The notes under the pieces are model-generated. The model was not told the origin of the DNA. It did not search any database and worked only from the letters and a program-made list of their open reading frames with translations. From a virus: a DNA stretch of 41,691 nt. The DNA lies in IMG/VR virus record IMGVR_UViG_3300031983_000005, positions 1 through 41,691 of that record. One strand, 5' to 3'. A program made the translations under genes and the position numbers. Positions 4,604 through 41,576 of this stretch are shown one piece after another (within the stretch, counting starts at the first letter, position 1; every line of letters begins with the position of its first letter).

Positions 4604-4621
4604 GTGATAGAGGGAGCCTTT
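4604..4621 (-). promoter_or_regulatory. Conserved 18-mer AAAGGCTCCCTCTATCAC (gene sense), copy d
   Basis: Plus strand reads gtgatagagggagccttt. It overlaps the RecT stop codon and abuts the hairpin. Confidence 0.7.
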
Positions 4622-5600
4622 AATCTGGCGGCTGAGCGTTTTCGTCGCCGATTGATACGTTCGGATCGACGGTGCTGGCTTTAGTCGTCGCTTTTTTCTT
4701 TTCCTCGGGCGGTGGTGTCTTTGTATCTTTGAGGATATCGGCCTGAGTGCCGTTTTCCGGTGGCTTTTCCTCTTTTGCGACTGGTTGTGTGCCTTTCGTC
4801 AGGATCTTGCTAAAATCGATCTGACCGCCTCGATTATAATCTCGATAATCGACGACCTCGTCGTCTGCGGTCATAGCGGATTTAAAAGCGCGCATTTTCA
4901 TCGTCGTCGTCGGTACGTATTTCCGCGAGTGCCGGATCACTGTTTTAATCCACATATCATCCTCGTCGTCGGGGTTGTTCCATGGACTGAATTCCGACTT
5001 TGCCGCTGGCGATCTGCTTTTTGCGGCCATTACTTTTTGCTTGTTGAAAACCTCGAAAAACGTGCCGCCGTTCGTGAAATGCCAGACGCAATAAACCGCG
5101 ATTTTTTCACCGGCGTCGTTTAATAATGGTTCGTGGATAAGTATCGGAGTCAGGCCGTAAGCATATTTAAAATAGTCGTTTTCAAACACGACGCGACCGC
5201 TCACGCTGGCGACCATATCGGTATTAAATGCCATTGTGACAAATCCCTGGTAGCCGATTAAAAAAGTGCATTCTTTAGCCTTGATGTGCTTATTATACCG
5301 GGGGATTAAATAGCATTGACCGAGATCCGGAGCAAAGTCGAGGCCGAGGACCGTCGCGCGCATAATAGCGCCGAATATACTGGCCGGCGTACACTCGCGG
5401 ATCTCTGGGGTTCGGGTGATCACCGACGTGGCCAGCGCGATCACTCTGTCCGTCGTCTGGCCGGATGATACCGCTCTTTGGATATGCGACCGGTAGCCCT
5501 CAAAAAAGTCGGTGATGCCGTTGGTGTTGAGTCCTTGAAATGTTTCGAGGGGGTCATCGTCCGCTTGATTGTCGCGGATCTTGTCGAGATATTTAGTCAT
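4620..5600 (-). CDS. recT: RecT-family single-strand annealing recombinase
   Basis: Track ORF, 326 aa. The core IMRATVLGLDFAPDLGQCYLIPRYN...FLIGYQGF is typical of RecT. It lies directly downstream of a YqaJ-type exonuclease. Confidence 0.85.
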   Translation of the reverse strand: MTKYLDKIRDNQADDDPLETFQGLNTNGITDFFEGYRSHIQRAVSSGQTTDRVIALATSVITRTPEIRECTPASIFGAIMRATVLGLDFAPDLGQCYLIPRYNKHIKAKECTFLIGYQGFVTMAFNTDMVASVSGRVVFENDYFKYAYGLTPILIHEPLLNDAGEKIAVYCVWHFTNGGTFFEVFNKQKVMAAKSRSPAAKSEFSPWNNPDDEDDMWIKTVIRHSRKYVPTTTMKMRAFKSAMTADDEVVDYRDYNRGGQIDFSKILTKGTQPVAKEEKPPENGTQADILKDTKTPPPEEKKKATTKASTVDPNVSIGDENAQPPD

Positions 5601-5676
5601 AATTAAGCCCTTTCTGTGGTTGGTTAATGAAAATATACGACCGGATCACTGCCGGTTCAAGTGGCGAAATTTCGCC

Positions 5677-6603
5677 TTATTTTACTAAAAATTGGCGCGT
5701 TTTTGACGGATTGATCCACTTCTTATAAAGCGCCGGATGCGACTCTTTAAATCCGGAAGTGTTGAAGTCGGATCGATTAACCTGGTTCCATGTGATTAGC
5801 CTGGTGCCGCCGCGCTGCAATTCATTGTGGACGCCGAGCGATAATTTGAGCCGGTCTTCATAGGATTCTTTTTGCTCTGTCAGGGTTTTGATTTGAGCCT
5901 TGACGTTTTTTAATTCGATGTAATTTTGATAATCGTCGTCGGTGGCCGCTACGGGGTTGGTGTCGCGGACGGTGGCAAAGATCCGGTTTAAATCATCTTT
6001 GAGCGTGGGTTCCGGTTTGCGTTCCTTTTGAATATAGTCTTTCCAGAAGTCGGTTTCCACTTGCTGCAGGATCTTGATAAATGCGACCTCGGCTTGAATA
6101 TACCAATGTCTTAAAAACCGGTTGCCGATCAGCGCGGCCAGGTACGCCCATTTTAAGCCGGTGACCATTAAATAATGCTGAACCTGAGCATAATAATAGT
6201 CAGGAACTTCCTCGTGCCACATTTTGAAAGCAAACGGATCGACGGTTTTGATTTCGAGGATTCCTTTATCTGCAGGGGCAACATCGCCCTTAATCACTTC
6301 GCTACTTTTATAAAGATACCGATCGGGATTGCCGCCGATAAATTTTGCCTTTTCCATTGTGACGGCGCCAGGCGAATCGTCGATTGTGAGGCCGGTCCGC
6401 TCGCCGAATTCCTGCGCGATCATCGGTTCGGATAAACTGCCCCACAGTAGCCGCTCCGGATCTGCGTAGACGAATTCCTTGCCCTCGACTTTTGATTCAT
6501 AGACCTGCAGGGGCGTGAGCCAGGGATTTACTCCGAGGACGCCGCCGGCATCAGAGCCGCCTATAAATCCGCGACGCTGTTCAATTTGTTCGGTAGTGAG
6601 CAT
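5677..6603 (-). CDS. YqaJ-like viral recombinase-domain exonuclease (lambda Exo-type partner of RecT)
   Basis: Track ORF, 308 aa. The N-terminus EQRRGFIGGSDAGGVLGVNPWLTPLQVY is the YqaJ signature. Confidence 0.85.
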   Translation of the reverse strand: MLTTEQIEQRRGFIGGSDAGGVLGVNPWLTPLQVYESKVEGKEFVYADPERLLWGSLSEPMIAQEFGERTGLTIDDSPGAVTMEKAKFIGGNPDRYLYKSSEVIKGDVAPADKGILEIKTVDPFAFKMWHEEVPDYYYAQVQHYLMVTGLKWAYLAALIGNRFLRHWYIQAEVAFIKILQQVETDFWKDYIQKERKPEPTLKDDLNRIFATVRDTNPVAATDDDYQNYIELKNVKAQIKTLTEQKESYEDRLKLSLGVHNELQRGGTRLITWNQVNRSDFNTSGFKESHPALYKKWINPSKTRQFLVK

Positions 6604-6605
6604 AA

Positions 6606-6794
6606 TTAAACCGCCTTTCCTAATTTAGCGAGTTGCTTTTCAACTTCCTCGCGCGGTATGGTGATTCGGCCTTGATCAAAAAACTGGATTCCTTTCATTT
6701 TTCCCTGTTTGACCCAGACGCGGACCGTCGACGGCGTGACGCCTAATAATTTGGCGACTTCCGGAACGGTATAAGTCTTTGAAATTTGATCCAT
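6606..6794 (-). CDS. Helix-turn-helix DNA-binding protein (excisionase/MerR-like HTH_17 type); first gene of the early-left operon
   Basis: Track ORF, 62 aa. YTVPEVAKLLGVTPSTVRVWVKQGKM is a classic HTH. Confidence 0.8.
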   Translation of the reverse strand: MDQISKTYTVPEVAKLLGVTPSTVRVWVKQGKMKGIQFFDQGRITIPREEVEKQLAKLGKAV

Positions 6795-6826
6795 TTTTCT
6801 TATCCTTTCGGTTAATTGTATGCTTT

Positions 6827-6855
6827 AATATACGAAAAATGCGCAAATAAAACAA
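6827..6855 (-). promoter_or_regulatory. Sigma70-type promoter candidate for the early-left operon
   Basis: Minus-strand sense: TTGTTT (6855-6850), 17-nt spacer, TATATT (6832-6827), about 35 nt upstream of ATG 6794. Confidence 0.5.
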
Positions 6856-6878
6856 ATGCAAAATAATGCAAAAAAGAC

Positions 6879-6907
6879 TTGTATCATATACTGTTTAGTG
6901 CTATATT
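6879..6907 (+). promoter_or_regulatory. Sigma70-type promoter with extended -10 (early-right operon 1)
   Basis: TTGTAT (6879-6884), 17-nt spacer ending in TGC, TATATT (6902-6907). The promoter plus leader is near-identical to 34581-34643. Confidence 0.65.
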
Positions 6908-6940
6908 TCTATTAACCAATCACACTAAAAGGAGCCAATT

Positions 6941-7294: not shown

Positions 7295-7295
7295 A

Positions 7296-7559: not shown

Positions 7560-7585
7560 CGTATTCCTCTCTCCTTTTTAACCAC

Positions 7586-7616
7586 AAAAAAAGCCGGTTT
7601 TTACGCCGGCTTTTTC
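7586..7616 (+). terminator. Rho-independent terminator (A-tract / hairpin / T-tract, potentially bidirectional)
   Basis: AAAAAAAGCCGG-tttttacg-CCGGCTTTTT. Stem is 7592-7597 / 7606-7611, with a T-run to 7615. Confidence 0.7.
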
Positions 7617-7771
7617 ATGAACTCTCATTCACTACCAAACACTCAAAAGAAAGGAACCGCCGCGTATTTCGGTGAGGAAATAGGGGGGTTATCTTGTGAT
7701 GTTGCCCATAATTTACAAAGATCCGGACCATTGTCAAGTGATCATATTTCCGGATCTGCCTCCTGGATTCT

Positions 7772-8945: not shown

Positions 8946-11159
8946 CTAATTTTTAATATTGATATCGATCTCTGTCGCCGATCGGATCACGACGCCGGTG
9001 TCGGCCAGATCTTCGATATTGATTTCAGTATTCAACCTGTCCGCGATTGCGATCGCTATATTTAATAAAAGATCCGGATAAATGCGAGCGGTTGGATCGA
9101 CTACGGTGGCCACCGCTGCAGCGATCGCGTTGACGATCGTCGTGTGAATTCCTGTGACTTCCGGACCGACCACGTCGCAAACTGCGTCGGCGATCGCGTT
9201 GGCGATGGTGATTGAGGATTGAAACGTATAGGGATCAACCGTTTTCGCCAGGACCGTCGCAATTTCACCGCTGATTAAAATCGAGGATAAGCCGACCGTC
9301 GGATCAACCATTTCGGCCAGGGCTGTCGCGATCGCGTTGGCGACTGTGATATTTCCCAAAATTGGCGCCGGATCTACCGCCGCCGCGATTACTGTCGCCA
9401 GGGCATTCGAGATCAAAACCGACGGAAATACGACGTTTGGATCAATGACGCTGGCGATTGCGGTCGCGATTTCGTTCGCGATTATAATTGATCCGAGCGC
9501 GACGGCCGGATTTGCGCTGCTGGTGATAGTGGAGGCGATCTCGCTCGATATTGTAACCGCGCCCAGGTCGACGTATGGATTCACAGTGCCGGCCAGGGCG
9601 GTGGCGATTTCATTCGATATCGTGATGCCTTGTTCAAGCAAAGTCGGATCGACCACTGTCGCGATCGCTTCCGCGATTGCATTTTGTATGGTTATCGATC
9701 CGAGGATAGTTCCCGGGACGACGACTGCAGCGATCGCCGTCGATATTTCATTGACGATCGTTATTGATCCCTGGTGTGTCGTCGGATCTACTCCGCGAGC
9801 GATTGCGTCCGCTATTATATTGGAAATTGTGAGGCTGTTTAAAACAGTCGTCGGATCAATCGTTCTGGCGATTGCGACCGCAATATCCGGAATGACGATC
9901 ATGCTGCTCATGCCGACAAAGGGTTCAATGACGCCGCAAAGCGCTGCAGCGATCTGATTCGTGATTAAAACGTCACCAAGGACCGCCGTCGGATCAATCG
10001 TGGCCACCACCGCTGAGGCAAGCGTCGGGGTCAACGTCACAAAATTTATAATATTCGGCGGTTGCTGGTTTGTAATCGCTGAGGCTATCGCGTTTGAAAC
10101 TGTGGTGTCACCAAGGATCACCGTCGGATCAATGGACCGGCCTATTGAGGACGCGATTAAATTTTGAAGCAAAACATTATTAATCACAGTTGGATCAACG
10201 CCGGCGGCTATCGCGCTGATCGGGGGAGGAGTCACTATTACACCGCCTAAAACATATTCGTCCGCCCCGATATCCCAAATTCCAGAGCGGGTATCGCCGG
10301 CAATATCATCTGAAAAAAGTCCCGATCCCGGATCGGATATTCCGGCATCTTTTAAATCGGTGTCAGTAGATTTTAAAGAAAAATCCTCGTTTGCCCAATC
10401 CTCAAAAACCGTACTCCAATCAGAGGGTGTTACAGGATGATCTCCATCTCCGTCATCAGAGGCGCAATAATCGATATTGCTTACACTATCAAAATCGTCG
10501 GCATTATTAAATGAAACACAGTTAATACAAGTCATCGTACCCGATAATTGTTTAAAACCATCGACAGATGTCGCTCCTTCTATAACGATATTATAACAAT
10601 GGCAGGTGCTTCCGCTAAATTCAATTCCTCTACGCGGGAAATCATATATTATTGTATTCCATATCTTTATAATGGCGTTGGTATTGTTAATAATTCCTAT
10701 ATATTTAACCGTTCCAACTCCGGCATTACCTTTTAAAATACTATTTGAAATTCTTAATTCATTACCCACATCTAACGCGGTATGATTAATACAGGCGATA
10801 TAAGTATCGGAACTTGAAAAAGAAAGCGTAAGTTGAAAAGCATCAACTCTTACAAAATTTTCCCTTACAGCCAAAGCGGTTTCGTCGATCGTGGATAATC
10901 TATATTTTGAAACGTCTAGTTCGGCGCTGCCTAATCTCTCTCCTTTTATTTCTATATATCTCGTGGCATCCGTGGTCCATCCAACAAGATCAACGACCGT
11001 CGTGTCTGCGGAACCGGAAGATGCTCTGCAATTTGCTTGAGCGATTTCATCTGCGGCAGGCAGATCTCTTTGCTGTGCAACTTCCCAGGCATTAAGGGAA
11101 ATATAATCAGTACCTCCCCCATTGTCGGGGTCGATTATATGTGAAATTACACTGGCCAT
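8946..11159 (-). CDS. Tail fibre / receptor-binding protein: N-terminal parallel beta-helix-like domain plus about 400 aa of tandem 23-aa repeats
   Basis: Track ORF, 737 aa. The N-terminal part has pectate-lyase-like repeat texture (NAIIKIWNTIIYDF, GIEFSGSTCHCYNIVIEG, TCINCVSFNN). The C-terminal part repeats DPTxxLGSITIxNxIAxAIAxVV. Confidence 0.75.
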   Translation of the reverse strand: MASVISHIIDPDNGGGTDYISLNAWEVAQQRDLPAADEIAQANCRASSGSADTTVVDLVGWTTDATRYIEIKGERLGSAELDVSKYRLSTIDETALAVRENFVRVDAFQLTLSFSSSDTYIACINHTALDVGNELRISNSILKGNAGVGTVKYIGIINNTNAIIKIWNTIIYDFPRRGIEFSGSTCHCYNIVIEGATSVDGFKQLSGTMTCINCVSFNNADDFDSVSNIDYCASDDGDGDHPVTPSDWSTVFEDWANEDFSLKSTDTDLKDAGISDPGSGLFSDDIAGDTRSGIWDIGADEYVLGGVIVTPPPISAIAAGVDPTVINNVLLQNLIASSIGRSIDPTVILGDTTVSNAIASAITNQQPPNIINFVTLTPTLASAVVATIDPTAVLGDVLITNQIAAALCGVIEPFVGMSSMIVIPDIAVAIARTIDPTTVLNSLTISNIIADAIARGVDPTTHQGSITIVNEISTAIAAVVVPGTILGSITIQNAIAEAIATVVDPTLLEQGITISNEIATALAGTVNPYVDLGAVTISSEIASTITSSANPAVALGSIIIANEIATAIASVIDPNVVFPSVLISNALATVIAAAVDPAPILGNITVANAIATALAEMVDPTVGLSSILISGEIATVLAKTVDPYTFQSSITIANAIADAVCDVVGPEVTGIHTTIVNAIAAAVATVVDPTARIYPDLLLNIAIAIADRLNTEINIEDLADTGVVIRSATEIDINIKN
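9017..10217 (-). repeat. About 17 tandem coding repeats of about 69 bp (23 aa) inside the fibre gene
   Basis: The recurrent units VDPT..LGSITI.N.IA.AIA..V cover roughly residues 315-715. The DNA is rich in GCGATCGC/CGATCG. Confidence 0.8.
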
Positions 11160-11935
11160 TAGTCATCAAGTTTAGATTTTAAATATTGAATTAATTCTGC
11201 CGGTGTGGCTGTGATTATTCCTCCCCGGGAAATAACATTATCCACCACTGCCTTACCAAAATAATAAAGACGTTTGGCAATTTTCATACGTGCTAATTTC
11301 CTTTTAAAGTCTTCCTTAAACTCAGAAAAAATATTATTCCGGGTTATTGTAAATACTATTTCCCGATTTGAATGGGAAATAATATTATCAGCCTTTTCTC
11401 TGATATATCTTTCCACATAAGTGGGGTTTAAATTCAATGCCGAATAATCGGCGGTTACTTCATGGATACCGGTCACTTCGTTATAAATTTCAGAAAACAC
11501 CACATCTTCCAAATTAGACCGATCATCCCAGAATATAGAGGATTGAATTGCATTAAATATGCTGATATCAAAAACCACTACATTTGGGACCACTAAAAAA
11601 ATCGCAGCGTTCCACTGGTCCAGGTAATTTTCAATCTGGATCCTGGTTAAATAGCCTTTGCCGGAATTGTCCGCCATTATAGAAAAGGCCCTGATCCTGT
11701 AACTATCTAATTCAGCGTTATGGTTTACAATTTCATAATCAATAACAAGATCCCATCCGTTTTGGTATTCTTCCACCGGTGCTAATAATAATTCCGGGAA
11801 TTTGATCACTATAAAATCCGGCAATTTCTCCATAGCACTATACGGGGTATCATTGGCCCGTACTTCCACCACATCGCCCCTTTTTATACCGAATCCCGGT
11901 TTGTCCTCATTTGCCCAAATTAAAAATTCTGACAT
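11159..11935 (-). CDS. Hypothetical tail-module protein (258 aa), AT-rich
   Basis: Track ORF. Its stop abuts the fibre gene start. Same low-GC block as the fibre N-terminus. Confidence 0.75.
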   Translation of the reverse strand: MSEFLIWANEDKPGFGIKRGDVVEVRANDTPYSAMEKLPDFIVIKFPELLLAPVEEYQNGWDLVIDYEIVNHNAELDSYRIRAFSIMADNSGKGYLTRIQIENYLDQWNAAIFLVVPNVVVFDISIFNAIQSSIFWDDRSNLEDVVFSEIYNEVTGIHEVTADYSALNLNPTYVERYIREKADNIISHSNREIVFTITRNNIFSEFKEDFKRKLARMKIAKRLYYFGKAVVDNVISRGGIITATPAELIQYLKSKLDD

Positions 11936-12369
11936 TTATGCTGCTTATCCTTTCCCTTTCCGGACGTGATAGAGGGAGCCTTTGCCGGCTTGATCAGATC
12001 GTCAAATTTGCCGCCGGCATTTAACTGATTATAAATATGAACCGGATGGTTTAAAGGCCGGCCGGTTCCCTTGCAGTGGGTCAATTTCCAGGTGCGAGCC
12101 TTATCCGTCGTTATCCGGATTCGCATTTTTCCGTCCTCGCCGGCGTGTTTTTTGACCAGGCGGCGCTTTAAAAGCCGCGTCATTAAAAGCCGCGCGACTT
12201 CTACCTCGGCGGAACTGGCTTTATCCGGCGTGATCGGGGCGCCCATTATAGCCAAAAACTTCGGATAAATAAAAGTGCTGTCAACTTCTAAAATCTCGCC
12301 GACGTGATCCTTTGATAATTTAGTCCACGCCGGCAAGTTTTTTATTACATCTGGATGAAAAGTAAACAT
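11920..12369 (-). CDS. Hypothetical protein (149 aa)
   Basis: Track ORF. RBS is AAGGAGTTAAATATG. Its 3' end carries the conserved 18-mer. Confidence 0.7.
   Translation of the reverse strand: MFTFHPDVIKNLPAWTKLSKDHVGEILEVDSTFIYPKFLAIMGAPITPDKASSAEVEVARLLMTRLLKRRLVKKHAGEDGKMRIRITTDKARTWKLTHCKGTGRPLNHPVHIYNQLNAGGKFDDLIKPAKAPSITSGKGKDKQHKCQNF
11966..11983 (-). promoter_or_regulatory. Conserved 18-mer AAAGGCTCCCTCTATCAC, copy c
   Basis: Perfect copy inside the 3' end of 11920..12369 (codes AKAPSIT), about 30 nt upstream of ATG 11935 and at a GC-rich/AT-rich boundary. Confidence 0.7.
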
Positions 12370-19124: not shown

Positions 19125-20626
19125 TAAAGCAAAATCTCCTTACAGATCACATTGTCAATCTGGCCGACCGGTGTCGGAAAGCCGAGCCGGTGATTAATCC
19201 GTAAAAATAATTGATGCGCCCAACTGTGAGGGATTTCCCCGATATATTGTTTCGAGCCGGTTCCGGTCAACCATCCGCCGGCCAGCGTTTGAGATTGTGC
19301 AAGATTTTCGCTCCAGATCTCGATTGTCCAGTTTACATTTGCTCCGTTCCAATGATCAAAGTCGAGTTGAAAGCGCATTCCTTGATATAAACCCTCGGCG
19401 GTTCCTATGAATTCGAGATAAAAATCAAAATTGGGGGTTCCGTTATGCTCTGCCCTGAAATTTAACGAATCCCATCGAAGCGCGATGCCGCCCCAGTCAC
19501 CGGTTCCGATGCTAAAATGCCGATTGTCGCCGGTTGTGCGGATTAAATCGCGATCTTCCGGCGGATCTACGGTTCTGATGATAGTGGAGGCAATTTGATT
19601 TGATATAACGATCGGTTCCTCGATTGCTGCCGGATCTAAGACGCTGGCGAGTGCTTCCGCGATTAAATTCGATAAAAGGACCGGATTTTCGACGTTTGGA
19701 TCTAAAATTGACGCGATTGCGGTGGCCACCAGGTTTGATAAAACGACCGGCTGGCCGATGCCTGGATCAACTGTTCTGACGATCACGTCGGCCAGTAAGT
19801 CGCTGAGTAATACCGGCGTGAGCGCTGTCGTATCGGCTGAAACGAGCGCTGAGGCAATCATATTGGAAATGTCCACGTTATTTATAATGGCCGGATCTAC
19901 GACGCCGGCGATAATATCGGCAATCATATTTCCGATAAAAACGGGCGTGAGGGCGGTCGTATCGGCGCGAGCGATCGCGCTGGCGATGATGTTCGTAAGA
20001 ATGACAGGGTTTAAAACGGTCGGGTCAAGGCTGGACGCTATCGCTGAGGCGAACGCTCCCGATATGCGAATAGTAAGGTCGATCCGTCCGATCGCGGCGT
20101 CAGCGATTGCTGAGGCGTTTAATCCGGCGATCAAAACGTTGTTTATGATGTTAGGTTCAACGGTTCTGGCGATCGCGCTGGCAAGATCCGGCGTCAATGT
20201 TACGTGTGAAATTGCTGTGACGTCTGACCGACCGACCGCTGCAGCGCTTAAATTGCTTAATATAACGTCCGTTATAGTGACTTGAGCCACTCCAACGAAC
20301 TGACCCTTGATTCCATAGGCGATTTTATCGTCTATTTGGCCGGAAAAGTTGATTTCCTTTAAATGAACCTGGCCTTCATACAAAATATTCGCATATTCGA
20401 GCGCCATAAGCGTCGGGGCCGGCTGTGGAGTTATTGGTGGCTTGTCGGCGTCGCTGAATATAGTGGCTGTAAAATTAATCACGTTTTTTCCGACCAGTTT
20501 TTCGTTATTATTTCCGGAATTACTCACATCGACCGCGTTGACAAATTCGTCGGTCTGAACATTGACCATTCCATAAACGCCGCCGTCGCGCGAAAGATAT
20601 CCGGTGTTAAATAAATTTTTAGCCAT
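19124..20626 (-). CDS. Tail tube-like N-terminal domain plus 21-23 aa repeat region plus C-terminal globular domain (500 aa)
   Basis: Track ORF. The N-terminus MAKNLFNTGYLSRDGGVYGMVNVQT...IKGQFVGV is paralogous to the tube genes. About 11 repeats follow, of the same type as in the fibre. Confidence 0.6.
   Translation of the reverse strand: MAKNLFNTGYLSRDGGVYGMVNVQTDEFVNAVDVSNSGNNNEKLVGKNVINFTATIFSDADKPPITPQPAPTLMALEYANILYEGQVHLKEINFSGQIDDKIAYGIKGQFVGVAQVTITDVILSNLSAAAVGRSDVTAISHVTLTPDLASAIARTVEPNIINNVLIAGLNASAIADAAIGRIDLTIRISGAFASAIASSLDPTVLNPVILTNIIASAIARADTTALTPVFIGNMIADIIAGVVDPAIINNVDISNMIASALVSADTTALTPVLLSDLLADVIVRTVDPGIGQPVVLSNLVATAIASILDPNVENPVLLSNLIAEALASVLDPAAIEEPIVISNQIASTIIRTVDPPEDRDLIRTTGDNRHFSIGTGDWGGIALRWDSLNFRAEHNGTPNFDFYLEFIGTAEGLYQGMRFQLDFDHWNGANVNWTIEIWSENLAQSQTLAGGWLTGTGSKQYIGEIPHSWAHQLFLRINHRLGFPTPVGQIDNVICKEILL
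19594..20275 (-). repeat. About 11 tandem coding repeats (21-23 aa) related to those of the fibre gene
   Basis: Units such as DPTVLNPVILTNIIASAIARA, DPAIINNVDISNMIASALVSA and DPNVENPVLLSNLIAEALASVL. Confidence 0.75.
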
Positions 20627-22282: not shown

Positions 22283-22594
22283 TTATCGCTTTCTGCTCAA
22301 AATGTGTTTTATCTCGCGCCGGTTATCAATTAAGGCCGGCAATAAATACGGCCGCGCTGCCATGAACCTGGTGCCGAGTTCGATAAATGCCGCGTAGTTG
22401 ACGGTGGTTCCGATTTGTTCAGTAAATGGCGCGACTTTCCGGTGTGAAATACTCGCTCTTAAATTTCCGGTGTCAACTGCGACCAGTAATTTAGCGGCTG
22501 TTTCAACAAATTCGCCGGCTATGGATAATCGTCTTTTGAGATCTCTTTCAATCTGCTTTTGAACCCGATCCCTGTTTGATTTATATCGCGCCAT
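22283..22594 (-). CDS. HK97 gp10-family head-tail joining / tail component protein
   Basis: Track ORF, 103 aa. Carries DTGNLRASI and NYAAFIELGT...ARPYLLPA motifs. Confidence 0.8.
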   Translation of the reverse strand: MARYKSNRDRVQKQIERDLKRRLSIAGEFVETAAKLLVAVDTGNLRASISHRKVAPFTEQIGTTVNYAAFIELGTRFMAARPYLLPALIDNRREIKHILSRKR

Positions 22595-22613
22595 TACCTG
22601 TTCCTCTTTGAAC

Positions 22614-22631
22614 GTGATAGAGGGAGCCTTT
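22614..22631 (-). promoter_or_regulatory. Conserved 18-mer AAAGGCTCCCTCTATCAC, copy b
   Basis: Perfect copy that overlaps the TAA of 22630..22989 and lies 20 nt upstream of ATG 22594. Confidence 0.7.
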
Positions 22632-22989
22632 AGGCCGCCTTTTTAAATGGATTTGTCGGAAAAGTGACCATCGAGGGCGAATTCGCGAGCGCTTTCGCAT
22701 AACTAATGCCGGTCAACGGCGCGAATGCGATCATCAAGCCCTGAAATTGCTCCGGAGTGATAAATCCGGCGATCTGAGCGATCACCAATAAGCCGACGAC
22801 TACGCCGATCGTATAGGTGAGCCAGCCCTTTGAATCAATGAATTTTCTACCGGCTGCAGCGCTGCCAAATCCAAAAACCGCCGCGAATGTCCAGGCGACG
22901 GTCGAAATATCCGGCTTTAAAACGCCGAGCGCGATCGCGACCACGCAAAGGAAAAATCCGATATACGTAAAAATTGGTTTGTTAAACAT
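22630..22989 (-). CDS. Integral membrane protein (about 4 TM segments, 119 aa)
   Basis: Track ORF with four hydrophobic stretches. It lies inside the head-tail joining block. Confidence 0.7.
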   Translation of the reverse strand: MFNKPIFTYIGFFLCVVAIALGVLKPDISTVAWTFAAVFGFGSAAAGRKFIDSKGWLTYTIGVVVGLLVIAQIAGFITPEQFQGLMIAFAPLTGISYAKALANSPSMVTFPTNPFKKAA

Positions 22990-32072: not shown

Positions 32073-32073
32073 A

Positions 32074-32288
32074 TTAACTTCCATCTGGTGCTGCGTGATA
32101 AACCTTGAACATTTCATCTCTTTCGCCTCGTACCCATTTCGACCAGTCTGTCGATCTCAAAACGATTAAAACCTCATTAAAATCGGTTCCCTCGATCGCG
32201 GCAAAAAGTAATTGTTCAACTGATAAATCGCCAAAATCCTCGCATTTTTTTCAAGATCCTGAACTTCTTTAATACAATCTTTAGTCAT
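32074..32288 (-). CDS. Hypothetical protein needing a -1 shift (or one extra A) in an A7 run to be read as 71 aa
   Basis: ATG 32288 overlaps the rSAM stop (ATGA). Frame 0 gives MTKDCIKEVQDLEKNARILAIYQLNNYFLPRSREPILMRF. After a -1 shift at GAAAAAAAT (32245-32251) it reads ...EKKCEDFGDLSVEQLLFAAIEGTDFNEVLIVLRSTDWSKWVRGERDEMFKVYHAAPDGS and ends at TAA 32076..32074. Confidence 0.45.
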
Positions 32289-33571
32289 ATCAAGCTCCTT
32301 TGTTTTAAAACGGTTTGTTTTTTTTGTTTTTTATCGTCATGTGGGAATGTAATATCGAGCCGGTTAAACTTTCCCCTGAGCAAGTCGCCGAGTCCGAGTT
32401 CGTCACACCGGTCAATGTAAGTTTGAAAACCGCCGTCCAGGTGTGGAAATACTTCTTTTTCCAGGACGAAAATCGCCTCAAGTTCCGCCGCGCTGCTTGC
32501 TCGCTCTTTTAGGGTTTGTTCAATTTTCGAGTACGGTTTCAGGTTATTCGATTTATAGATCCGGAGCCGGCTATTAACCCGACGCCAGTGAAATAGCACT
32601 TTCTGAAAATCGACCACCTTGATTTTTGTCAGGTCGAACCGCTCCAACGGCGTGTAAATATTCGGGTTGAAATAATTGATAATAAGATTTAAGCGTGGTT
32701 TTCTGTTTATGGAGTCCGGCTTGACGATTTTTTCCGCGAATTCGATCCACTGATCAGTGGTGTCTATGCCAGCGATAAAAAATATATTGCATTCCTTGTG
32801 ATGTTCAAGCGTTTTCTGGACGAATTCGGTGATCTCTTTATCCTTGATATGCTTTCCGAAAAAATAGCGTCCTTCCTCGGTGACTGATTCCACGCCGGCG
32901 CGAATTAAATTGAGTTTGGCATAATCGAGGGGCGCTTTATTGTATTCCTTGAGCATCACGTCGCTGACTTTTCGGCCGATATTCGATTTTGAATAATCGT
33001 TCGTGACCACGTTCAACATTTTTCCGCGCGTTTTTTCGTATGCCATTTTAAGGTGCATCGAGTTCGGGTTCCGTTGATATGAATTGATCCAACTTGTCGC
33101 GCAAAAATTACATTTGAACCGGCAGCCAGTTGACCAGAATATCCCGAACGTGTTTTTTCCGGTCTGTATCAGTGGGATCATTTCCCAATCAATAAACTGA
33201 TTAAACTCGAATTGGCCGGTTTTATCTTTATGATAAATATAGGGTTTATCCGCCAGCGCGTCGAGCGATCCGTCCAGATCTTTGAAAAACTGAAAGCCAT
33301 GACCCAGGTTGACAAGATCCGCAAATTCCGCGATCGCGAGGGGCGCGTATGTGGCATGACCGCCGGCGACGATTGGCCGGTCCGTCATTTTCCGGAGCCG
33401 TTTTATATCTTTGATTTCTGAATGGTGTGCCAGGCTGATCGTGGCAAAATCACAATCGGCCGGATCTTCGACGATTTCGTGACCGTTCTTTTTCGCGATG
33501 TGTTTGATTAATTCCTGCGTGTAAAAAGTGACTTCCTCGCGGTCGTATTTATTATAATAGTATACCTTCAT
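32285..33571 (-). CDS. Radical SAM protein with N-terminal B12-binding-like domain (class B-like)
   Basis: Track ORF, 428 aa. Has the CRFKCNFC (CxxxCxxC) cluster motif after an N-terminal Rossmann-like domain (PIVAGGHATYAPL), and later FFIAGIDT... and NYFNPNIYTPLER segments. Confidence 0.8.
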   Translation of the reverse strand: MKVYYYNKYDREEVTFYTQELIKHIAKKNGHEIVEDPADCDFATISLAHHSEIKDIKRLRKMTDRPIVAGGHATYAPLAIAEFADLVNLGHGFQFFKDLDGSLDALADKPYIYHKDKTGQFEFNQFIDWEMIPLIQTGKNTFGIFWSTGCRFKCNFCATSWINSYQRNPNSMHLKMAYEKTRGKMLNVVTNDYSKSNIGRKVSDVMLKEYNKAPLDYAKLNLIRAGVESVTEEGRYFFGKHIKDKEITEFVQKTLEHHKECNIFFIAGIDTTDQWIEFAEKIVKPDSINRKPRLNLIINYFNPNIYTPLERFDLTKIKVVDFQKVLFHWRRVNSRLRIYKSNNLKPYSKIEQTLKERASSAAELEAIFVLEKEVFPHLDGGFQTYIDRCDELGLGDLLRGKFNRLDITFPHDDKKQKKQTVLKQRSLI

Positions 33572-34202
33572 TTTTCTTGACTATCCCCATCAATTTGGTT
33601 CCAAATTCATTGTATTTCTTTTGATCGGTGTCGAATACGTCCAGTAATTTGTCGCTCAAATCGGTGATATATTCGCAAATATCCGGATCGTCTATAAAAC
33701 AAACGATATTATGGATCTGCAGCGCGAGGGCATTTCCGGCGTAAATATGCCCTTTGGCGGAATTGGCTTTCAGATCTGGGTTTTTGATGATATCGAAATT
33801 GAACATTTCTTTTAGTTCCGGACCGCTGTAAATAAAATCAGTTTTCATCTTGCCGATGATCTTTTTCATTTCCTTTTCGAGTAATCCATAATCCCAATAT
33901 GAGCGTTCACCGAGCCGATTGTCCGCAATCCGGTACGCCGTCTTGTGATCCTCTTTCATGCCTCGATGGATCACGACGGTGACGGAGCCCATCTTTAATT
34001 TTTTCGCTGCTTTTAGCGCGGTGTGTCCATACAATAAAACAAGATCCTCATCCACGCCGATCGGCCGGATGAATCCGAATTCCTTAATCGAGTCAGCAAT
34101 ATACTGGACCGCGTCGTCATTTACTCGCGGATTATCCTCGTAGGGAACGAGATCCGTGAGGACGACTTTTTTTAATTCCTGTTTGACGTCGGGGATCTTC
34201 AT
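33552..34202 (-). CDS. ParB N-terminal (ParBc) domain protein
   Basis: Track ORF, 216 aa. LVPYEDNPRVNDDAVQYIADSIKEFGFIRPIGV...LLYGHTALKAAKKL...YRIADNRL is the ParB-like nuclease-domain pattern. Its 3' end overlaps the rSAM start by 20 nt. Confidence 0.8.
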   Translation of the reverse strand: MKIPDVKQELKKVVLTDLVPYEDNPRVNDDAVQYIADSIKEFGFIRPIGVDEDLVLLYGHTALKAAKKLKMGSVTVVIHRGMKEDHKTAYRIADNRLGERSYWDYGLLEKEMKKIIGKMKTDFIYSGPELKEMFNFDIIKNPDLKANSAKGHIYAGNALALQIHNIVCFIDDPDICEYITDLSDKLLDVFDTDQKKYNEFGTKLMGIVKKNEGILL

Positions 34203-34470: not shown

Positions 34471-34508
34471 AATTTTTGACGGTTTTTTCGCTTTTTTTTC
34501 GATTGAAC

Positions 34509-34523
34509 GTGATAGATGGAGCG
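34509..34523 (-). promoter_or_regulatory. Conserved motif, degenerate copy e (CGCTCCATCTATCAC, 13 of 15 core positions)
   Basis: Lies in the divergent intergenic region, about 70 nt upstream of ATG 34438. Confidence 0.5.
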
Positions 34524-34580
34524 ATCGAGATCAAAAAAGTTACCGGTAAGTGTAAAAAGTGCGAAAAAAGAAAAAAAGAT

Positions 34581-34609
34581 TTGCATCATAAGGTCTTTAG
34601 TGCTATATT
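34581..34609 (+). promoter_or_regulatory. Sigma70-type promoter with extended -10 (early-right operon 2)
   Basis: TTGCAT (34581-34586), 17-nt spacer ending in TGC, TATATT (34604-34609). Near-identical to the 6879-6907 promoter and leader. Confidence 0.65.
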
Positions 34610-34640
34610 TATATCAACCAAACAGAGAAAGGCACCAATC

Positions 34641-35187: not shown

Positions 35188-35457
35188 ATGTCGATTTTAT
35201 TATCCGAATATTTAAAGATCCTCCAGACCGGTGAAAATCCGGTCGTCTATATTGCCGCGATGTACCAGGCTTTTAGAGTCACCGGTATGGCGCCCAATAT
35301 GTGGGTCGTAACCGGCTCCGATTTATCTCAGCGGTCCTGGTGTTGCCATTCCGGAACGCCGCTTTTTTATACTCGCGAGGAATGCGAGGCTTATATCAAA
35401 TTATTGCAAGCCACCGATCAGCGGATTCAAGAAAAATACGGCGGCGTCAGATCGTAG
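35188..35457 (+). CDS. Hypothetical protein (89 aa)
   Basis: Track ORF. RBS is AAAGGGCTTAATCATG. Confidence 0.7.
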   Translation: MSILLSEYLKILQTGENPVVYIAAMYQAFRVTGMAPNMWVVTGSDLSQRSWCCHSGTPLFYTREECEAYIKLLQATDQRIQEKYGGVRS

Positions 35458-35477
35458 CCGCCTCCACTATCACATTC
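35457..35477 (+). promoter_or_regulatory. Conserved motif, degenerate plus-strand copy f (GCCGCCTCCACTATCACATTC)
   Basis: Same orientation relative to its gene as the minus-strand copies, 22 nt upstream of ATG 35499. 11 of 15 core positions match. Confidence 0.4.
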
Positions 35478-35498
35478 ACAAAACGAAAGGGCTTAAAT

Positions 35499-36941: not shown

Positions 36942-36976
36942 AGCCCCCTATTTGTTTTCAGGTAGGGGGCTTTTTA
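36942..36976 (+). terminator. Rho-independent terminator
   Basis: AGCCCCCTA (36942-36950), 12-nt loop, TAGGGGGCT (36963-36971), then TTTTT. Confidence 0.75.
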
Positions 36977-36980
36977 TATT
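36952..36980 (+). promoter_or_regulatory. Sigma70-type promoter candidate embedded in the terminator
   Basis: TTGTTT (36952-36957, in the terminator loop), 17-nt spacer, TATATT (36975-36980), about 35 nt upstream of ATG 37016. Confidence 0.4.
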
Positions 36981-38971: not shown

Positions 38972-39318
38972 TTTGGAGCCCCTTTTTTTATGAATATATA
39001 CTTAAAAAACAATTCATGAAAGATTAAAATTTCGACCGGTAGCGCTGGCAGCCACAAATAAACCGGCATCCCACTTTTGCAAAATAATACGATCGACGTG
39101 ACGATGAATAATTGTTTCAGTTTTTTGGCGTCGTGCCAGGCATCTCTTCCGAAAATCTTCCGGTACCAGGGAAGTTTTTGATAATCCGTTGCCAGCCTCC
39201 AATAATTAGTGGCCGGAAAAATCATAATATGCCGGTGGAATAAAACAGTGTCCATAACGGCGTCGAGAATGTAAGCAACGCCGAATGATACCAATCCAAA
39301 AACATAGAGCCAGATCAT
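38968..39318 (-). CDS. Integral membrane protein (116 aa)
   Basis: Track ORF 38968..39366 trimmed to ATG 39318 (MIWLYVFGLVSFGVAYIL...), which directly follows the stop of the zinc-ribbon gene. Several TM segments. Confidence 0.6.
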   Translation of the reverse strand: MIWLYVFGLVSFGVAYILDAVMDTVLFHRHIMIFPATNYWRLATDYQKLPWYRKIFGRDAWHDAKKLKQLFIVTSIVLFCKSGMPVYLWLPALPVEILIFHELFFKYIFIKKGAPK

Positions 39319-39320
39319 TT

Positions 39321-39506
39321 TTACTTCTTTTGAATTATTGGTGATATTTTTAGGGGTGCTCCGCAATGGCTGCAGCGGAACCGGAAAAGCCGTTCATTCC
39401 GCCAGAGCCGGCCTTTACATTTATAGCATGGATAATTGATAAGCCGGAACGGCGTTTGATATTCGACCGGTATCGTAAAATTATAGTGGAGTTCGGCCGG
39501 TATCAT
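39321..39506 (-). CDS. Zinc-ribbon protein (61 aa)
   Basis: Track ORF 39321..39584 trimmed to ATG 39506 (ATGA overlap with the upstream stop). Sequence is MIPAELHYNF...CYKC...CSHC. Confidence 0.55.
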   Translation of the reverse strand: MIPAELHYNFTIPVEYQTPFRLINYPCYKCKGRLWRNERLFRFRCSHCGAPLKISPIIQKK

Positions 39507-39799
39507 AAAAGCGCCCAGATTAAAAATCGAACAAGCGCCAGGCCAGCGATCGCGCCGACCATATTCGCACCCATATCTTCCCAAAATTCGGTCGGATCTT
39601 TATCCCTGTCGACGACTTCGTTTATATAGCCGATCGCCATGACCGTCAAAAATGATAAAACGGCGGTCCAGGCGAAGATCTGTCCGAGCCATTTAGTATA
39701 TAAGCCAAAGAATAGGATCGCGAGGATTGTCGCGAGCCATAAATGCCAGGGAAAGCCCCAGTTCTTTTTTGTCAGATTGCGAAAAAATTTAACGATCAT
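39503..39799 (-). CDS. Integral membrane protein (98 aa), holin candidate by position
   Basis: Track ORF. RBS is AAAGGTGG. About 3 TM segments. First gene of the membrane/lysin cassette. Confidence 0.6.
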   Translation of the reverse strand: MIVKFFRNLTKKNWGFPWHLWLATILAILFFGLYTKWLGQIFAWTAVLSFLTVMAIGYINEVVDRDKDPTEFWEDMGANMVGAIAGLALVRFLIWALL

Positions 39800-40071
39800 T
39801 TTTTGCCACCTTTCATTTTTTTGTGATTACGTCGTGTCGCGAATTCATCGCGGTACGCGCGGATAAGTAATTTTTTCCCGACCTTTTGAAATATAAATAA
39901 ATGCTGCAATCCACAATCACAGCATATAATATTATAGATCTACTCGTTCGGACCGATCTTCTCGGTGAACATGGGTTCGCCGCTGAGCGCTGATTTCATT
40001 TTGAACCCTTTCTTTCGGGAGGCGAAAGATCCATGAATTCGGATAAGTATATTTATAAATTATTCGGCTGA

Positions 40072-40194
40072 TCAGCCTTTCATTTTCCGGCGTTTGAATA
40101 TATTATCGAGGACGGCTTTTTCATATTTCCGTTTTTTATATAGATAAATAATTGCTGCCGGTAGTTCTCGAATAATGCCTAAAATACGCCTCAT
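40072..40194 (-). CDS. Possible small basic protein (40 aa)
   Basis: Manual ORF after AAGAGG: MRRILGIIRELPAAIIYLYKKRKYEKAVLDNIFKRRKMKG. Confidence 0.3.
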   Translation of the reverse strand: MRRILGIIRELPAAIIYLYKKRKYEKAVLDNIFKRRKMKG

Positions 40195-40223
40195 TTCGAC
40201 CTCTTAGGTATAAGGCCGCCTTG

Positions 40224-40260
40224 AGATCATCGCTTGAGCGCGATCCTCGACGGCCGTTTT
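40224..40260. repeat. Dispersed 37-bp element, copy B
   Basis: AGATCATCGCTTGAGCGCGATCCTCGACGGCCGTTTT matches about 30 of 37 positions of 7921-7957. It is flanked by GGCCG/CGGCC arms and a plus-strand T-run. Confidence 0.7.
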
Positions 40261-40261
40261 T

Positions 40262-40492
40262 TCAGTATTTACGCCGGCTGCCCTTTTGCCGGTTAGTTTT
40301 CCTTGATACCGCGCGTAAATTCGATTTTCTATTTGATCCGCCTTTACTGAGCGACCGTTTGTGATCGACTTCGCGCCTGTCTGTTGGTTTTAAACCGAGG
40401 ATCCGCCGCGCTTTATTCCGCATGGACCGGAGGCGGCGCTGCTTTGGTTTTCCGTGAAAATCTCGATATTCCTTTTTGTAGTTTCGCGCCAT
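40262..40492 (-). CDS. Small HNH endonuclease (76 aa)
   Basis: Track ORF. REVDHKRSLSKGGSNRKSNLRAVSRKTNRQKG carries the DH...N...N core of HNH nucleases. Confidence 0.65.
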   Translation of the reverse strand: MARNYKKEYRDFHGKPKQRRLRSMRNKARRILGLKPTDRREVDHKRSLSKGGSNRKSNLRAVSRKTNRQKGSRRKY

Positions 40493-40795
40493 TTAAGCCG
40501 TCGCCTTTTGTTTTTTGGGTTCCTTTTTCGGTGTTTCCATGTTTTCAATTTGCTCGATGGTGAGCAAATCAAGATCCAGTTGACCGGTCCGGATCTCGTT
40601 CCACTTCTTTTTGACCTCGAATTCAAAATCGCGGATGGTTTCTTTATAGCCGGCAATCACTTTGGCGATCTCTGCCTCATACTCGGCGAGTTCCTCTTTT
40701 TTCGTGTCGCGCTGATCTTCAATTTCCATTATCTGATTCATGACGGCCAGGTATTCGGTTTTTTCCCGATTGGTTATAGAATAGAGTTGTATCAC
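40493..40795 (-). CDS. Coiled-coil hypothetical protein (100 aa)
   Basis: Track ORF. Abuts the HNH gene start. Confidence 0.7.
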   Translation of the reverse strand: MIQLYSITNREKTEYLAVMNQIMEIEDQRDTKKEELAEYEAEIAKVIAGYKETIRDFEFEVKKKWNEIRTGQLDLDLLTIEQIENMETPKKEPKKQKATA

Positions 40796-41112
40796 TTTAT
40801 TTTCCTCCTTTTAAAATAGTGGCAAAATTCTGCGGCCACATCCAATGATGTGAGTAAAAATTCCTTGCTATCGGCGCGGTCAAAATCAAATAATCCGCTG
40901 GCGCTATCAAAGTTCCTCTTAAAAAAACATACATTGGAATGCTCGCATTGAAAACATGAATTATATTCCGTGAAACTGCTTTTATGTTGGTTAATATTTA
41001 GCCTCCTTTTCAAAGCGTACAGGTTTGCGGTCTTTGAAGTTTTCCGGACGGATCGGCGAAAAAAAGAGATCCCGGGGATAGCAACTCGGCGCGCTGGAAT
41101 CTTTGATGCCAT
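40792..41112 (-). CDS. Hypothetical protein; 5' extent doubtful (overlaps 40991..41314 by 122 nt)
   Basis: Track ORF, 106 aa. There is no internal ATG after the upstream stop. Cys/His-containing segment CFQCEHSNVC. Confidence 0.35.
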   Translation of the reverse strand: MASKIPARRVAIPGISFFRRSVRKTSKTANLYALKRRLNINQHKSSFTEYNSCFQCEHSNVCFFKRNFDSASGLFDFDRADSKEFLLTSLDVAAEFCHYFKRRKIK

Positions 41113-41314
41113 ACATGACCGCAGCCGGAAAAAATACGACGAAAACGAATTTATCGTTTTTCGATTTTACGACGCCGAATTCAACGTCGGGGTGTTTTTT
41201 GAAGATCAGATTTTCGACCTGAACCATCGTCTGACCGTCCGCGATGTGGCTCGGTATATAGGCGACCGGCTGGCCGATATAAAAATCCTTTGATTCCTTT
41301 CCTTTGATGATCAC
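40991..41314 (-). CDS. Hypothetical protein (107 aa)
   Basis: Track ORF. ATGA overlap with the upstream gene. Confidence 0.65.
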   Translation of the reverse strand: MIIKGKESKDFYIGQPVAYIPSHIADGQTMVQVENLIFKKHPDVEFGVVKSKNDKFVFVVFFPAAVMYGIKDSSAPSCYPRDLFFSPIRPENFKDRKPVRFEKEAKY

Positions 41315-41532
41315 AATTCCCCCTTATCTTTTAGATGTTCGATCATTGCTTTTTTTAGCCTGTCCTCTTTGAGATTCATTAAAAAGTGAACCTTTGAAGA
41401 TACCAGTTGAGCAATAATTTCCGCCTTGTTATCTCTGATCGGAAATTCAAGATCTTTTAATTCAATGGGTTTGGTGTGAATTTCGACGGTGTTTTCGTCA
41501 CAATCAATAATTATTGTCGCTCGATTATCCAT
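41311..41532 (-). CDS. Hypothetical protein (73 aa)
   Basis: Track ORF. RBS is GAAAGGGCTTAATATG. First gene after the conserved 18-mer, copy a. Confidence 0.7.
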   Translation of the reverse strand: MDNRATIIIDCDENTVEIHTKPIELKDLEFPIRDNKAEIIAQLVSSKVHFLMNLKEDRLKKAMIEHLKDKGEL

Positions 41533-41558
41533 ATTAAGCCCTTTCCTATTCGATGAAT

Positions 41559-41576
41559 GTGATAGAGGGAGCCTTT
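41559..41576 (-). promoter_or_regulatory. Conserved 18-mer AAAGGCTCCCTCTATCAC, copy a
   Basis: Perfect copy 26 nt upstream of ATG 41532. Only this copy has a TTGATC hexamer 17 nt upstream of TATCAC. Confidence 0.7.

Follow-up and report, generated by a model that had tools for sequence, protein, structure and literature searches.

Oriented repeats spread over a whole genome are known to punctuate the transcription of phages, as in the case of T7 promoters, nut sites and stoperators, and each of them uncovered a new way of steering the polymerase. In the lambda nut sites and in rrn leaders, a hairpin (boxB) and a conserved linear box (boxA) are presented on the nascent RNA, while elongation factors are loaded at ops and at class I (his/trp-type) pause signals. 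The subject of this work is an 18-mer, AAAGGCTCCCTCTATCAC, dispersed through a stretch of 41,691 nucleotides (nt) of viral DNA, positions 1 to 41,691 of the IMG/VR record IMGVR_UViG_3300031983_000005, which was analysed at its full length and is referred to as the window. This 18-mer is best classed with the phage-specific signals of transcription punctuation, and what it brings to them is a mini-hairpin with covariation and an occurrence also on DNA of the putative host. It is unusually long and exact for such a signal, comes with statistical support for a small RNA helix, and belongs to a phage without recognisable polymerase, sigma factor or antiterminator.

An exhaustive scan of the window recovered four exact matches to AAAGGCTCCCTCTATCAC, all on the minus strand, at 4604-4621 (copy a), 11966-11983 (copy b), 22614-22631 (copy c) and 41559-41576 (copy d). 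Chance is ruled out by the shuffle statistics, with a mean of 0.03 matches per dinucleotide-shuffled sequence and four matches in none of 100 shuffles, which confirms what had been claimed in an earlier reading based on the letters alone (the sequence-only reading). Beyond the four exact copies, no site in the window has three or fewer mismatches to the 18-mer, and a relaxed scan added copy e at 34509-34526 (minus strand, four mismatches) and copy f at 35456-35473 (plus strand, six mismatches). These two degenerate copies, also proposed in that reading, are genuine because an exact 12-mer, CTATCACRTTCA, with four occurrences, is common to them and to copies c and d. This 12-mer reaches 5 nt beyond the 18-mer, and therefore the full consensus is about 23 nt long, AAAGGCTCCCTCTATCAC|RTTCA, a contiguous block with the strongest conservation in its 3′ half, with CTATCAC invariant across all copies and with a purine right after the 18-mer. 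In the alignment of the copies, the sequence outside the element is unrelated, in line with the earlier statement that extended flanking homology is absent; copies d and f also have in common a downstream GAAAGGGCTTAA ribosome-binding block. All six phage copies are oriented like the genes around them, and this holds for f too, the sole plus-strand copy, which lies in a plus-strand operon. The repeat is a real, strongly non-random, strand-specific regulatory element, and most probably it governs the passage of transcription between successive blocks. Its copies, with the arms of the hairpin described below, are arranged as follows:

Copy a, 4599..4633, minus strand: 5′ arm AGCC at 4633-4630, an 11-nt loop, the 18-mer at 4621-4604, then GATCC; hairpin pair probability 0.62-0.70, free energy -4.6 kcal/mol; the recT stop TAA (4622-4620) overlaps the motif start, and the copy heads the replication block after recT.
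Copy b, 11961..11990, minus strand: 5′ arm AGCC at 11990-11987, a 6-nt loop, the 18-mer at 11983-11966, then GTCCG; pair probability 0.80-0.87; placed inside the 3′ end of the open reading frame (ORF) 11920-12369 (AKAPSIT), before the 258-amino-acid (aa) gene (start 11935) that heads the low-GC fibre block.
Copy c, 22609..22636, minus strand: 5′ arm GGCC at 22636-22633, loop UAAA, the 18-mer at 22631-22614, then GTTCA; pair probability 0.92-1.0; the TAA of gene 22630-22989 overlaps the motif start, and a gp10-like tail gene starts at 22594.
Copy d, 41554..41581, minus strand: 5′ arm GAGCC at 41581-41577, loop AAA, the 18-mer at 41576-41559, then ATTCA; pair probability 0.98-1.0; located 35 nt past the stop of a wrap-around 175-aa ORF and before gene 41532, at the block with the HNH, holin-like and GH108 lysozyme-fragment genes.
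Copy e, 34504..34526, minus strand: GATCGCTCCATCTATCAC followed by GTTCA, without a hairpin partner; placed in the divergent regulatory region before the packaging/head operon, with 34438 or 34453 as the start of its first gene.
Copy f, 35440..35478, plus strand: 5′ arm GGCGGC at 35440-35445, an 11-nt loop, the motif AGCCGCCTCCACTATCAC at 35456-35473 with the 3′ arm GCCGCC at 35457-35462, then ATTCA; pair probability 0.99, free energy -12.9 kcal/mol; the TAG of gene 35188-35457 overlaps the motif start, and the copy precedes gene 35499 in a plus-strand operon.

The distance from the motif to the start codon is 104 nt in a, 30 in b, 19 in c, 26 in d, 70 (or 55) in e and 25 in f. An upstream stop codon stands at the same motif position in a and c (TAA) and in f (TAG), so that the overlap with stop codons noticed in the sequence-only reading is real but concerns three copies and not two, and not TAA alone. 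Likewise, the placement of one copy within coding sequence holds for copy b, and steps in GC content are visible at a, b and d, three copies as counted before. The association with the heads of blocks (replication, lysis/HNH, head/packaging, gp10/tail and fibre) and with composition boundaries is, in broad terms, correct. The co-orientation of six copies at gene boundaries stood up as well; however, their description as always marking module boundaries was overstated, as copy c lies inside the conserved head-tail operon.

Several trivial identities of the motif were considered and rejected, among them adapter contamination, a mimic of a CRISPR repeat, attP, iterons and Chi. An assembly artefact or k-mer misjoin was discarded, the 18-mer being too short for an assembly with k=55 and the gene order being collinear with relatives, and so was a parS site for the ParB-like protein of the phage, since the motif is non-palindromic and a relative with the same ParB-like gene is devoid of it. 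Look-alikes of the form CCTCCACTATCA at 9523 and 19578 are not sites; they are coding (IASTI) and belong to 69-nt repeats of two fibre-like proteins. As a separate observation, GATC occurs within about 25 nt of six of the seven known copies (the six of the phage and one on a bacterial contig, described below), against a background of about 37% per 50 nt (P ~0.01), and a Dam-like methyltransferase gene is situated at 2604-3362; a link between motif and methylation is possible.

The evidence points to a feature that is new here, a co-varying mini-hairpin attached to an oriented phage repeat. In the five full copies, i.e. the four exact ones and the one on the bacterial contig SDBT01014465.1 (locus L027), GCC is the sole trinucleotide common to the 12 nt upstream, always in the form of RGCC, which complements motif bases 4-7, GGCT (GGCU in RNA), and has a background of 5.5% of 12-nt windows. 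Pairing was tested by partition-function folding of 48-nt windows together with random-flank controls. The GGCU-RGCC pair probability was 0.62-1.0 in a, b, c, d and L027, with loops of 3-11 nt that close with AAA in every case, and for the isolated hairpins the free energies lie between -4.6 and -7.9 kcal/mol. Copy f has diverged to AGCCGCC in the 5′ half of its motif, and with GGCGGC upstream a helix of 6 base pairs (bp) is re-established, both arms having changed. When the motif was fixed and the upstream part replaced by random genomic 25-mers, the helix formed in 10% of cases, while it was observed in 5/5 (~1e-5); at arbitrary genome positions it formed in 7%, while it was observed in 6/7 copies (~1e-6), both probabilities being post hoc, as the pattern was noticed before it was tested. 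For copy f with random upstream 25-mers, the helix formed in 2%.

The hairpin thus counted is found next to the linear box in six of the seven copies, with its 3′ arm overlapping the box, its 5′ arm often within the last codons of the preceding gene, and its loop variable. The last paired base is position 7 of the motif (8 in d). On the 3′ side of the helix follow 11 unpaired invariant bases (CCCUCUAUCAC, rich in C and U), ending at C18, after which comes a purine, R19 (G five times, A twice). From this purine a further short helix often begins, which in copy a is a 16-bp stem with a U-run. A hairpin ending 10-11 nt before the C18|R19 step is the geometry of hairpin-dependent pause sites.

In regard to the level at which the element works, the hairpin, its free 5′ arm and the covariation in copy f together favour action on the nascent transcript over a double-stranded promoter. 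With transcription beginning at R19, the 5′ arm would not be part of the transcript, and therefore a double-stranded promoter gives no reason for the covariation. Furthermore, copy f is flipped together with its operon, which argues for a role linked to transcription and not to replication or packaging. On balance, it is somewhat probable that the element acts at the RNA or single-strand level. From the mechanisms listed in the sequence-only reading, a transcription- or RNA-linked signal is accordingly supported, while a plain double-stranded promoter, the leading option there, is disfavoured by the covariation in f, from which the antiterminator and RNA-site options gain. According to the explanation that we favour, a strand-specific cis element some 30-40 nt in length would have the 18-mer at its core and would be recognised as a single strand while the polymerase moves across gene blocks, be it in the nascent transcript or in the non-template strand within the transcription bubble. 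During elongation, the host RNA polymerase would pause at the element and could there be modified by a phage or host factor, after which transcription from a few sigma70-type early promoters might read through terminators into the replication, lysis, head, tail and fibre blocks. That the element is a pause or antitermination site of the nut or ops type is put forward tentatively, as a possibility.

The likeness to lambda nut and rrn sites lies in the combination of a hairpin with a conserved linear box, in the order of hairpin and then box as in rrn leaders, and in part in positions, copy a standing after early genes and before a terminator and copy e perhaps in the leader of the long late operon. 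The beginning of the box, GGCUCC, also resembles the GCUC core of boxA. Unlike in N-binding boxB, whose loop is conserved, the loop here is variable, and there are six sites, some of them internal to operons; no N-like protein was recognised, although such proteins are small and poorly conserved. The likeness to RfaH ops and class I pauses concerns a short, orientation-dependent signal inside transcription units and, in geometry only, a hairpin that ends 10-11 nt before a pyrimidine-purine step, which is C18|G19 in 5/7 copies. In contrast to those systems, no NusG paralogue was found, there is no G at -10, and the sequence is unrelated to ops (GGCGGTAGnnTG).

Terminators provide part of the background of this explanation. 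Intrinsic terminators follow shortly after both copy a and the L027 copy, the sole non-coding one detected outside the phage. The one in the phage is the following:

Hairpin directly after copy a, 4527..4603, minus strand: outer stem of about 16 bp and an inner stem (4603-4538), with a U-run at 4537-4527; intrinsic-terminator-like, z = -3.38, with none of 200 shuffles folding as well.

A sigma70-like promoter, TTGAAA-17-TATATT (4554-4526), overlaps with the 3′ arm and the U-run of this hairpin. Related to this, the phage has two composite terminator-plus-promoter cassettes, at 4527-4603 (minus strand) and 36942-36980 (plus strand), in each of which the -35 is contained in the 3′ arm of the stem-loop and CTTTTTATATT gives both the U-run and the -10.

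Several observations weigh against a pause or antitermination site. The genes past copy a have their own sigma70-like promoter, which makes read-through there not strictly needed, and no adjacent terminator follows copies b, c, d or f. On folding, copy e lacked a hairpin partner, and it may lie upstream of the late transcript rather than within it, an extended -10 (TGTTATATT, 34470-34462) being found downstream of it and before the first late gene. The stems are short (4-6 bp), and copies c and L027 have five flanking bases in common and are possibly not independent. In comparison with the boxA consensus of gamma-proteobacteria, GYTCTTTAANA (PMC5725501), which may not be that of the host, GGCTCCCTCTA fits about 5 of 10 specified positions. 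The motif has C at the position of the functionally critical T6. Finally, about 75 ORFs were scanned over Pfam, PHROG(s) and NCBIfam, not every ORF in every library, and no RNA polymerase, sigma, N-like, Q-like or NusG/RfaH-like (NusG_N, KOW) family was detected; the missing antiterminator match is weak evidence, most early proteins being ORFans.

A broader and rather unlikely variant is that the element represents a co-transcriptional RNA signal of an undescribed type, with a minimal hairpin with a free-floating 5′ arm and an invariant 11-nt box, read by an unrecognised phage or host factor (an antiterminator, a pause factor or an mRNA-delimiting RNA-binding protein). The phage would then be one of an uncultivated FCB-type (KSB1/Calditrichia-like) lineage, and the signal would also reside on strain-specific DNA of the putative host, for example on a satellite or island that listens to the phage signal. 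That lineage is without genetics, and if a cognate factor were found, a new regulator of elongation or mRNA maturation would have been uncovered.

The ordinary promoters of the phage bear on another explanation, a phage-specific middle or late promoter, either with the 18-mer at about -18 to -1 and the start at the purine, as in the T7-like layout, or with CTATCAC as an unusual -10, and recognised by the host polymerase with an unrecognised phage sigma or activator. Six intergenic sense promoters of the form TTGnnn-N16-18-TATATT were found, before the genes 6941, 34641, 37016, 6794 (a helix-turn-helix protein), recT and 4499, and neither these nor the extended -10 at 34470-34462 overlaps any copy of the motif. 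The motif itself is without canonical promoter elements, since TATCAC misses the critical final T of the -10 and there is no -35 at a fixed spacing; TTGATC is located 17 nt before TATCAC in the 41559 copy only, just as had been noted. These data show that the host polymerase uses ordinary -35/-10 promoters and that the motif is something else, and bipartite promoters of the sigma54, sigma28, sigma32 and extracytoplasmic-function types were rejected due to unsuitable spacing.

Still, a promoter would account for a contiguous block of 23 nt, best conserved in its 3′ half and followed by a purine, and for leaders of 19-30 nt, comparable to the leaders of the early sigma70-type promoters. None of the blocks headed by the motif (head, tail, fibre and lysis) has a TTGnnn-N17-TATATT promoter of its own. 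In having a motif at the head of these blocks, the phage recalls P2 or Mu with their four late promoters. At the site of copy e, the relative L050 has a near-consensus promoter ahead of the same packaging/head operon, and the L027 copy could be a stand-alone small-RNA unit. The likeness to T7, T3 and SP6 promoters extends to several gene-oriented copies of about 23 contiguous, near-identical bp with a purine at the presumed +1, with a superficial similarity between the motif (CCCTCTATCAC) and the T3 promoter (CCCTCACTAAAG). However, the Pfam, PHROG and NCBIfam scans brought no single-subunit polymerase (about 800 aa or more, Pfam RNA_pol), and the earlier statement that neither a polymerase nor a sigma factor is recognisable holds among the ORFs scanned. 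T7-type promoters have no co-varying upstream hairpin arm, the variably spaced RGCC arm and the covariation in f are left unexplained, and copy a would fire straight into a terminator. We therefore regard a promoter, in its two variants taken together, as doubtful; if the motif nevertheless turned out to be an ordinary late promoter, it would still provide a regulatory map of an otherwise unannotatable genome.

Among the ordinary promoters, further regularities were observed. A 61-nt repeat, 80% identical between 6862-6922 and 34564-34624, marks two homologous divergent early control regions, and in each of its copies an A-tract is joined by a promoter, TTGyAT-N17-TGCTATATT, directed into an operon on the plus strand. 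Further members of this promoter class are located at 6855..6827, 5660..5632 and 4554..4526 on the minus strand and at 36952..36980 on the plus strand.

The layout of a hairpin followed by an unpaired box, found between cistrons, could also suit an intercistronic site of RNA processing or stability, where an endonuclease would cut, or an RNA-binding protein would bind, at the single-stranded box. The hairpin would protect the 3′ end of the upstream mRNA, and the new 5′ end would lie 19-30 nt before the next start. RNase E prefers RN|WUU, and CAC|AUUCA in d and f suits this preference; the second short helix that often begins at R19 is also in favour. Exact conservation over 18-23 nt nevertheless far exceeds the needs of known bacterial endonucleases, no nuclease candidate is tied to the motif, copies a and L027 precede terminators, where processing has no obvious purpose, and copy e is without the hairpin. 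Processing is, for these reasons, an unlikely role.

The proximity to start codons leads to an additional alternative, translational control, in which the C/U-rich box CUCCCUCU, of anti-Shine-Dalgarno-like character, would pair with the ribosome-binding site 10-20 nt downstream, and the translation of the upstream gene would open the structure and couple both genes. Four copies end 19-30 nt before a start codon, the upstream stop overlaps the motif start in a, c and f with the 5′ arm in the last codons, and in c and d the box is paired, in the minimum-energy fold, with the region of the ribosome-binding site. On the other hand, z-scores of the leader folds are not significant (-0.5 to +0.5), copies a, e and L027 have no nearby ribosome-binding site, and such control has no need for 18 nt of exact conservation, which together make it very unlikely. 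A comparable dispersed asymmetric repeat that stands before starts in one orientation and sometimes absorbs the upstream stop is the start-associated sequence (SAS) of Cluster K mycobacteriophages, together with its extended form, ESAS. SAS (GGGATAGGAGCCC) includes the Shine-Dalgarno core and is separated from the start codon by 3-7 bp (PMC3203893), whereas the motif ends 19-104 nt upstream, is without a sense-strand Shine-Dalgarno and is followed by separate Shine-Dalgarno sequences. Identity with SAS is thus excluded by position; only the reverse complement of the motif resembles SAS, which was taken as coincidence. A different repeat directly concerned with initiation is the block GAAAGGGCTTAA(T)-ATG at 3774, 5603, 35174, 35485 and 41534 (and 35818), found in five or six genes and often after the leader (T)TAACCAAYCA.

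In regard to relatives, no cultured or close phage relative was found, and loci of relatives sought with the 549-aa protein and with RecT gave none; the TerL of the window itself had no entry on record. The nearest metagenomic relatives, L050 and L051, have TerL identities of 61% and 57% and are syntenic with the phage. In the 21.5-kb TerL-centred segment of each, about half of the respective ~41-kb contig, neither the motif nor even CTATCAC is present; the sequence-only reading had named absence from relatives with the same gene order as a finding that would speak against it, and this absence now holds for the two segments, although at 57-61% TerL identity the relatives are too distant for it to be decisive. 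In L051, terminator hairpins are also present after recT, without the motif.

The comparison with L050 bears on the suggestion that the motif is a conserved linker, or the boundary of a mobile regulatory cassette, which promotes modular exchange and whose location at junctions would be the cause of the mosaic and not its consequence. Copy c stands exactly at the end of a two-gene membrane-protein insertion that is missing in L050, inside the conserved head-tail operon, where the gp10-like assignment of the next gene is based on 56% identity to an L050 protein carrying PF04883. The composition steps at a, b and d, the copy in strain-specific DNA of the L027 contig, and the RecT and YqaJ encoded by the phage are also in favour, and there is a precedent in the T4-type PeSL cassettes (PMC2839356), short regulatory repeats that border variable modules and that the composites at 4527-4603 and 36942-36980 resemble. 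PeSL, however, consist of a sigma70-type promoter and a terminator stem-loop, and the 18-mer has neither. A length of 18-23 nt is also short for efficient homologous exchange, exchange partners are not visible, as the motif was seen in no other phage of IMG/VR, INPHARED or PLSDB, and the hairpin and the strict sense orientation are left unexplained. A linker is consequently very unlikely, and it is compatible with a regulatory role.

The last alternative is a roadblock similar to the stoperators of Cluster A mycobacteriophages, where a phage repressor bound to an asymmetric site would halt elongation in one orientation. The stoperators of L5, Bxb1 and TipsytheTRex are likewise asymmetric, located in short intergenic spaces, overlapping stops or starts and oriented with transcription in early and late operons, in a manner that fits the copies described here (PMC9283540). 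But those are 13-mers with more than 20 loosely conserved copies, as opposed to six sites of 18-23 nt with a hairpin. No copy lies on any of the six sigma70-type early promoters, so that a true operator is missing; homologues of repressors or integrases were not found; the covariation of the hairpin is left without explanation; and a roadblock directly before the terminator of copy a would be redundant. We consider a roadblock highly improbable.

Outside the window, the exact 18-mer had no other match in IMG/VR, and motif scans of INPHARED and PLSDB brought nothing. Variant patterns in IMG/VR gave chance matches only, several of them apparently coding, such as the tail-fibre-like 'APSITF'. Elsewhere, the exact 18-mer was found at 29 metagenome and 20 genome loci (49 in total), with one match each, and 48 of the 49 are recurring contexts that read as coding, i.e. 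chance matches unrelated to the phage, including one Ellagibacter gene. A recurring example is AAA GGC TCC CTC TAT CAC CAY TTY CC, translated as KGSLYHHFP, a context which we take to be TetR-like.

The remaining locus is the L027 copy, which is non-coding and matches copy c with flanks in 28 of 29 bases. It forms the GGCC/GGCU hairpin with a GAAA loop, and about 45 nt past it follow a 9-bp hairpin and a U7 run. The contig is a bacterial metagenome contig with cellular genes, whose Rho is about 70% identical to proteins named KSB1 or Calditrichia, and its composition is in part like that of the phage, with CTAG depleted and CCGG, GCCGGC, TCCGGA and GATC enriched. The copy is situated 130 nt from the contig end, beside a penicillin-amidase gene reduced to its C-terminal third, an arrangement (positions 1-420 of the contig) suggestive of an insertion or rearrangement boundary. 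It is absent from the syntenic region of a relative with 83% Rho identity and therefore lies in strain-specific DNA, possibly at the edge of a mobile element (a prophage or an island) in the host lineage of the phage. The motif could serve to connect the phage with its host and with any element on the chromosome that answers to it. Over 15 nt, the flank of L027 coincides with the P1 A-tract, which was judged to be chance, and Rfam and tRNA scans of both the window and L027 gave nothing.

As to the phage itself, which is tailed and uncultivated, the assembly in the window closes to a circle of about 41,636 bp, with an identical terminal overlap of 55 nt (1-55 and 41637-41691), and the 175-aa ORF upstream of copy d crosses the circular junction (503 -> 41612). 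Genes were recognised for an SPP1-type portal, the large terminase (TerL), a gp13-like capsid protein and a tape-measure protein, and others for RecT, YqaJ, an O-like replication protein, a Dam-like methylase, a ParB-like protein, an HNH endonuclease and a GH108 lysozyme fragment. The ORFs of at least 400 aa are the tape-measure protein, TerL, the portal and a radical-SAM-like protein, the rest being unassigned at fibre, tail or baseplate positions. Among the ~75 ORFs, no repressor or integrase family was matched, though a divergent repressor may have gone unrecognised. Early ORFans had no match in phage records, and PDB and tblastn searches of candidates returned nothing useful; a single-sequence AlphaFold model of the 176-aa early protein had a predicted local distance difference test (pLDDT) score of 43 and was unusable.

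Two of the unassigned large proteins (737 and 500 aa) have fibre-like repeats, which are 69-nt (23-aa) tandem coding repeats (..VDPT.. ..SN.IA.AIA..) at 9094-10165 and 19563-20193, and a tail-tube-like N-terminus is common to the 500-aa and a 270-aa protein. Relative to L050, the 549-aa protein corresponds to a 131-aa head-tail protein with a 415-aa extension. At 32285-34202, a protein with a ParB-N domain (216 aa) and the radical-SAM-like protein (428 aa) stand directly upstream of the small terminase, an arrangement kept in L050. The 59-aa ORF at 38369-38548 matches only the N-terminal part of the GH108 lysozyme domain (E = 1.7e-14), and the endolysin may be split, frameshifted, or continuing in another frame towards 37700. 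The very AT-rich region 400-1530 (27-35% GC) holds a cluster of small paralogous genes, whose products end in ..LKALEGK.. or ..LEGKDG and whose ribosome-binding-site regions are repeated (families D11, D14 and D16).

Finally, the composition of the window is extremely biased in short words. Depleted tetramers, given as observed/expected, are AGCT (11/157), CTAG (7/157) and GTAC (51/157), and twelve six-bp palindromes are absent: AAGCTT, ACTAGT, AGTACT, CACGTG, CAGCTG, CATATG, CCTAGG, CGTACG, CTATAG, CTTAAG, GAGCTC and GCATGC. Enriched words are GATC (393/157), CCGG (334/105), GCCGGC (46/5), CGATCG (57/8) and TCCGGA (53/8), together with a HIP1-like word, GCGATCGC, observed 15 times where 0.4 is expected. 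Such a bias suggests heavy restriction avoidance combined with an enrichment of host-type words.

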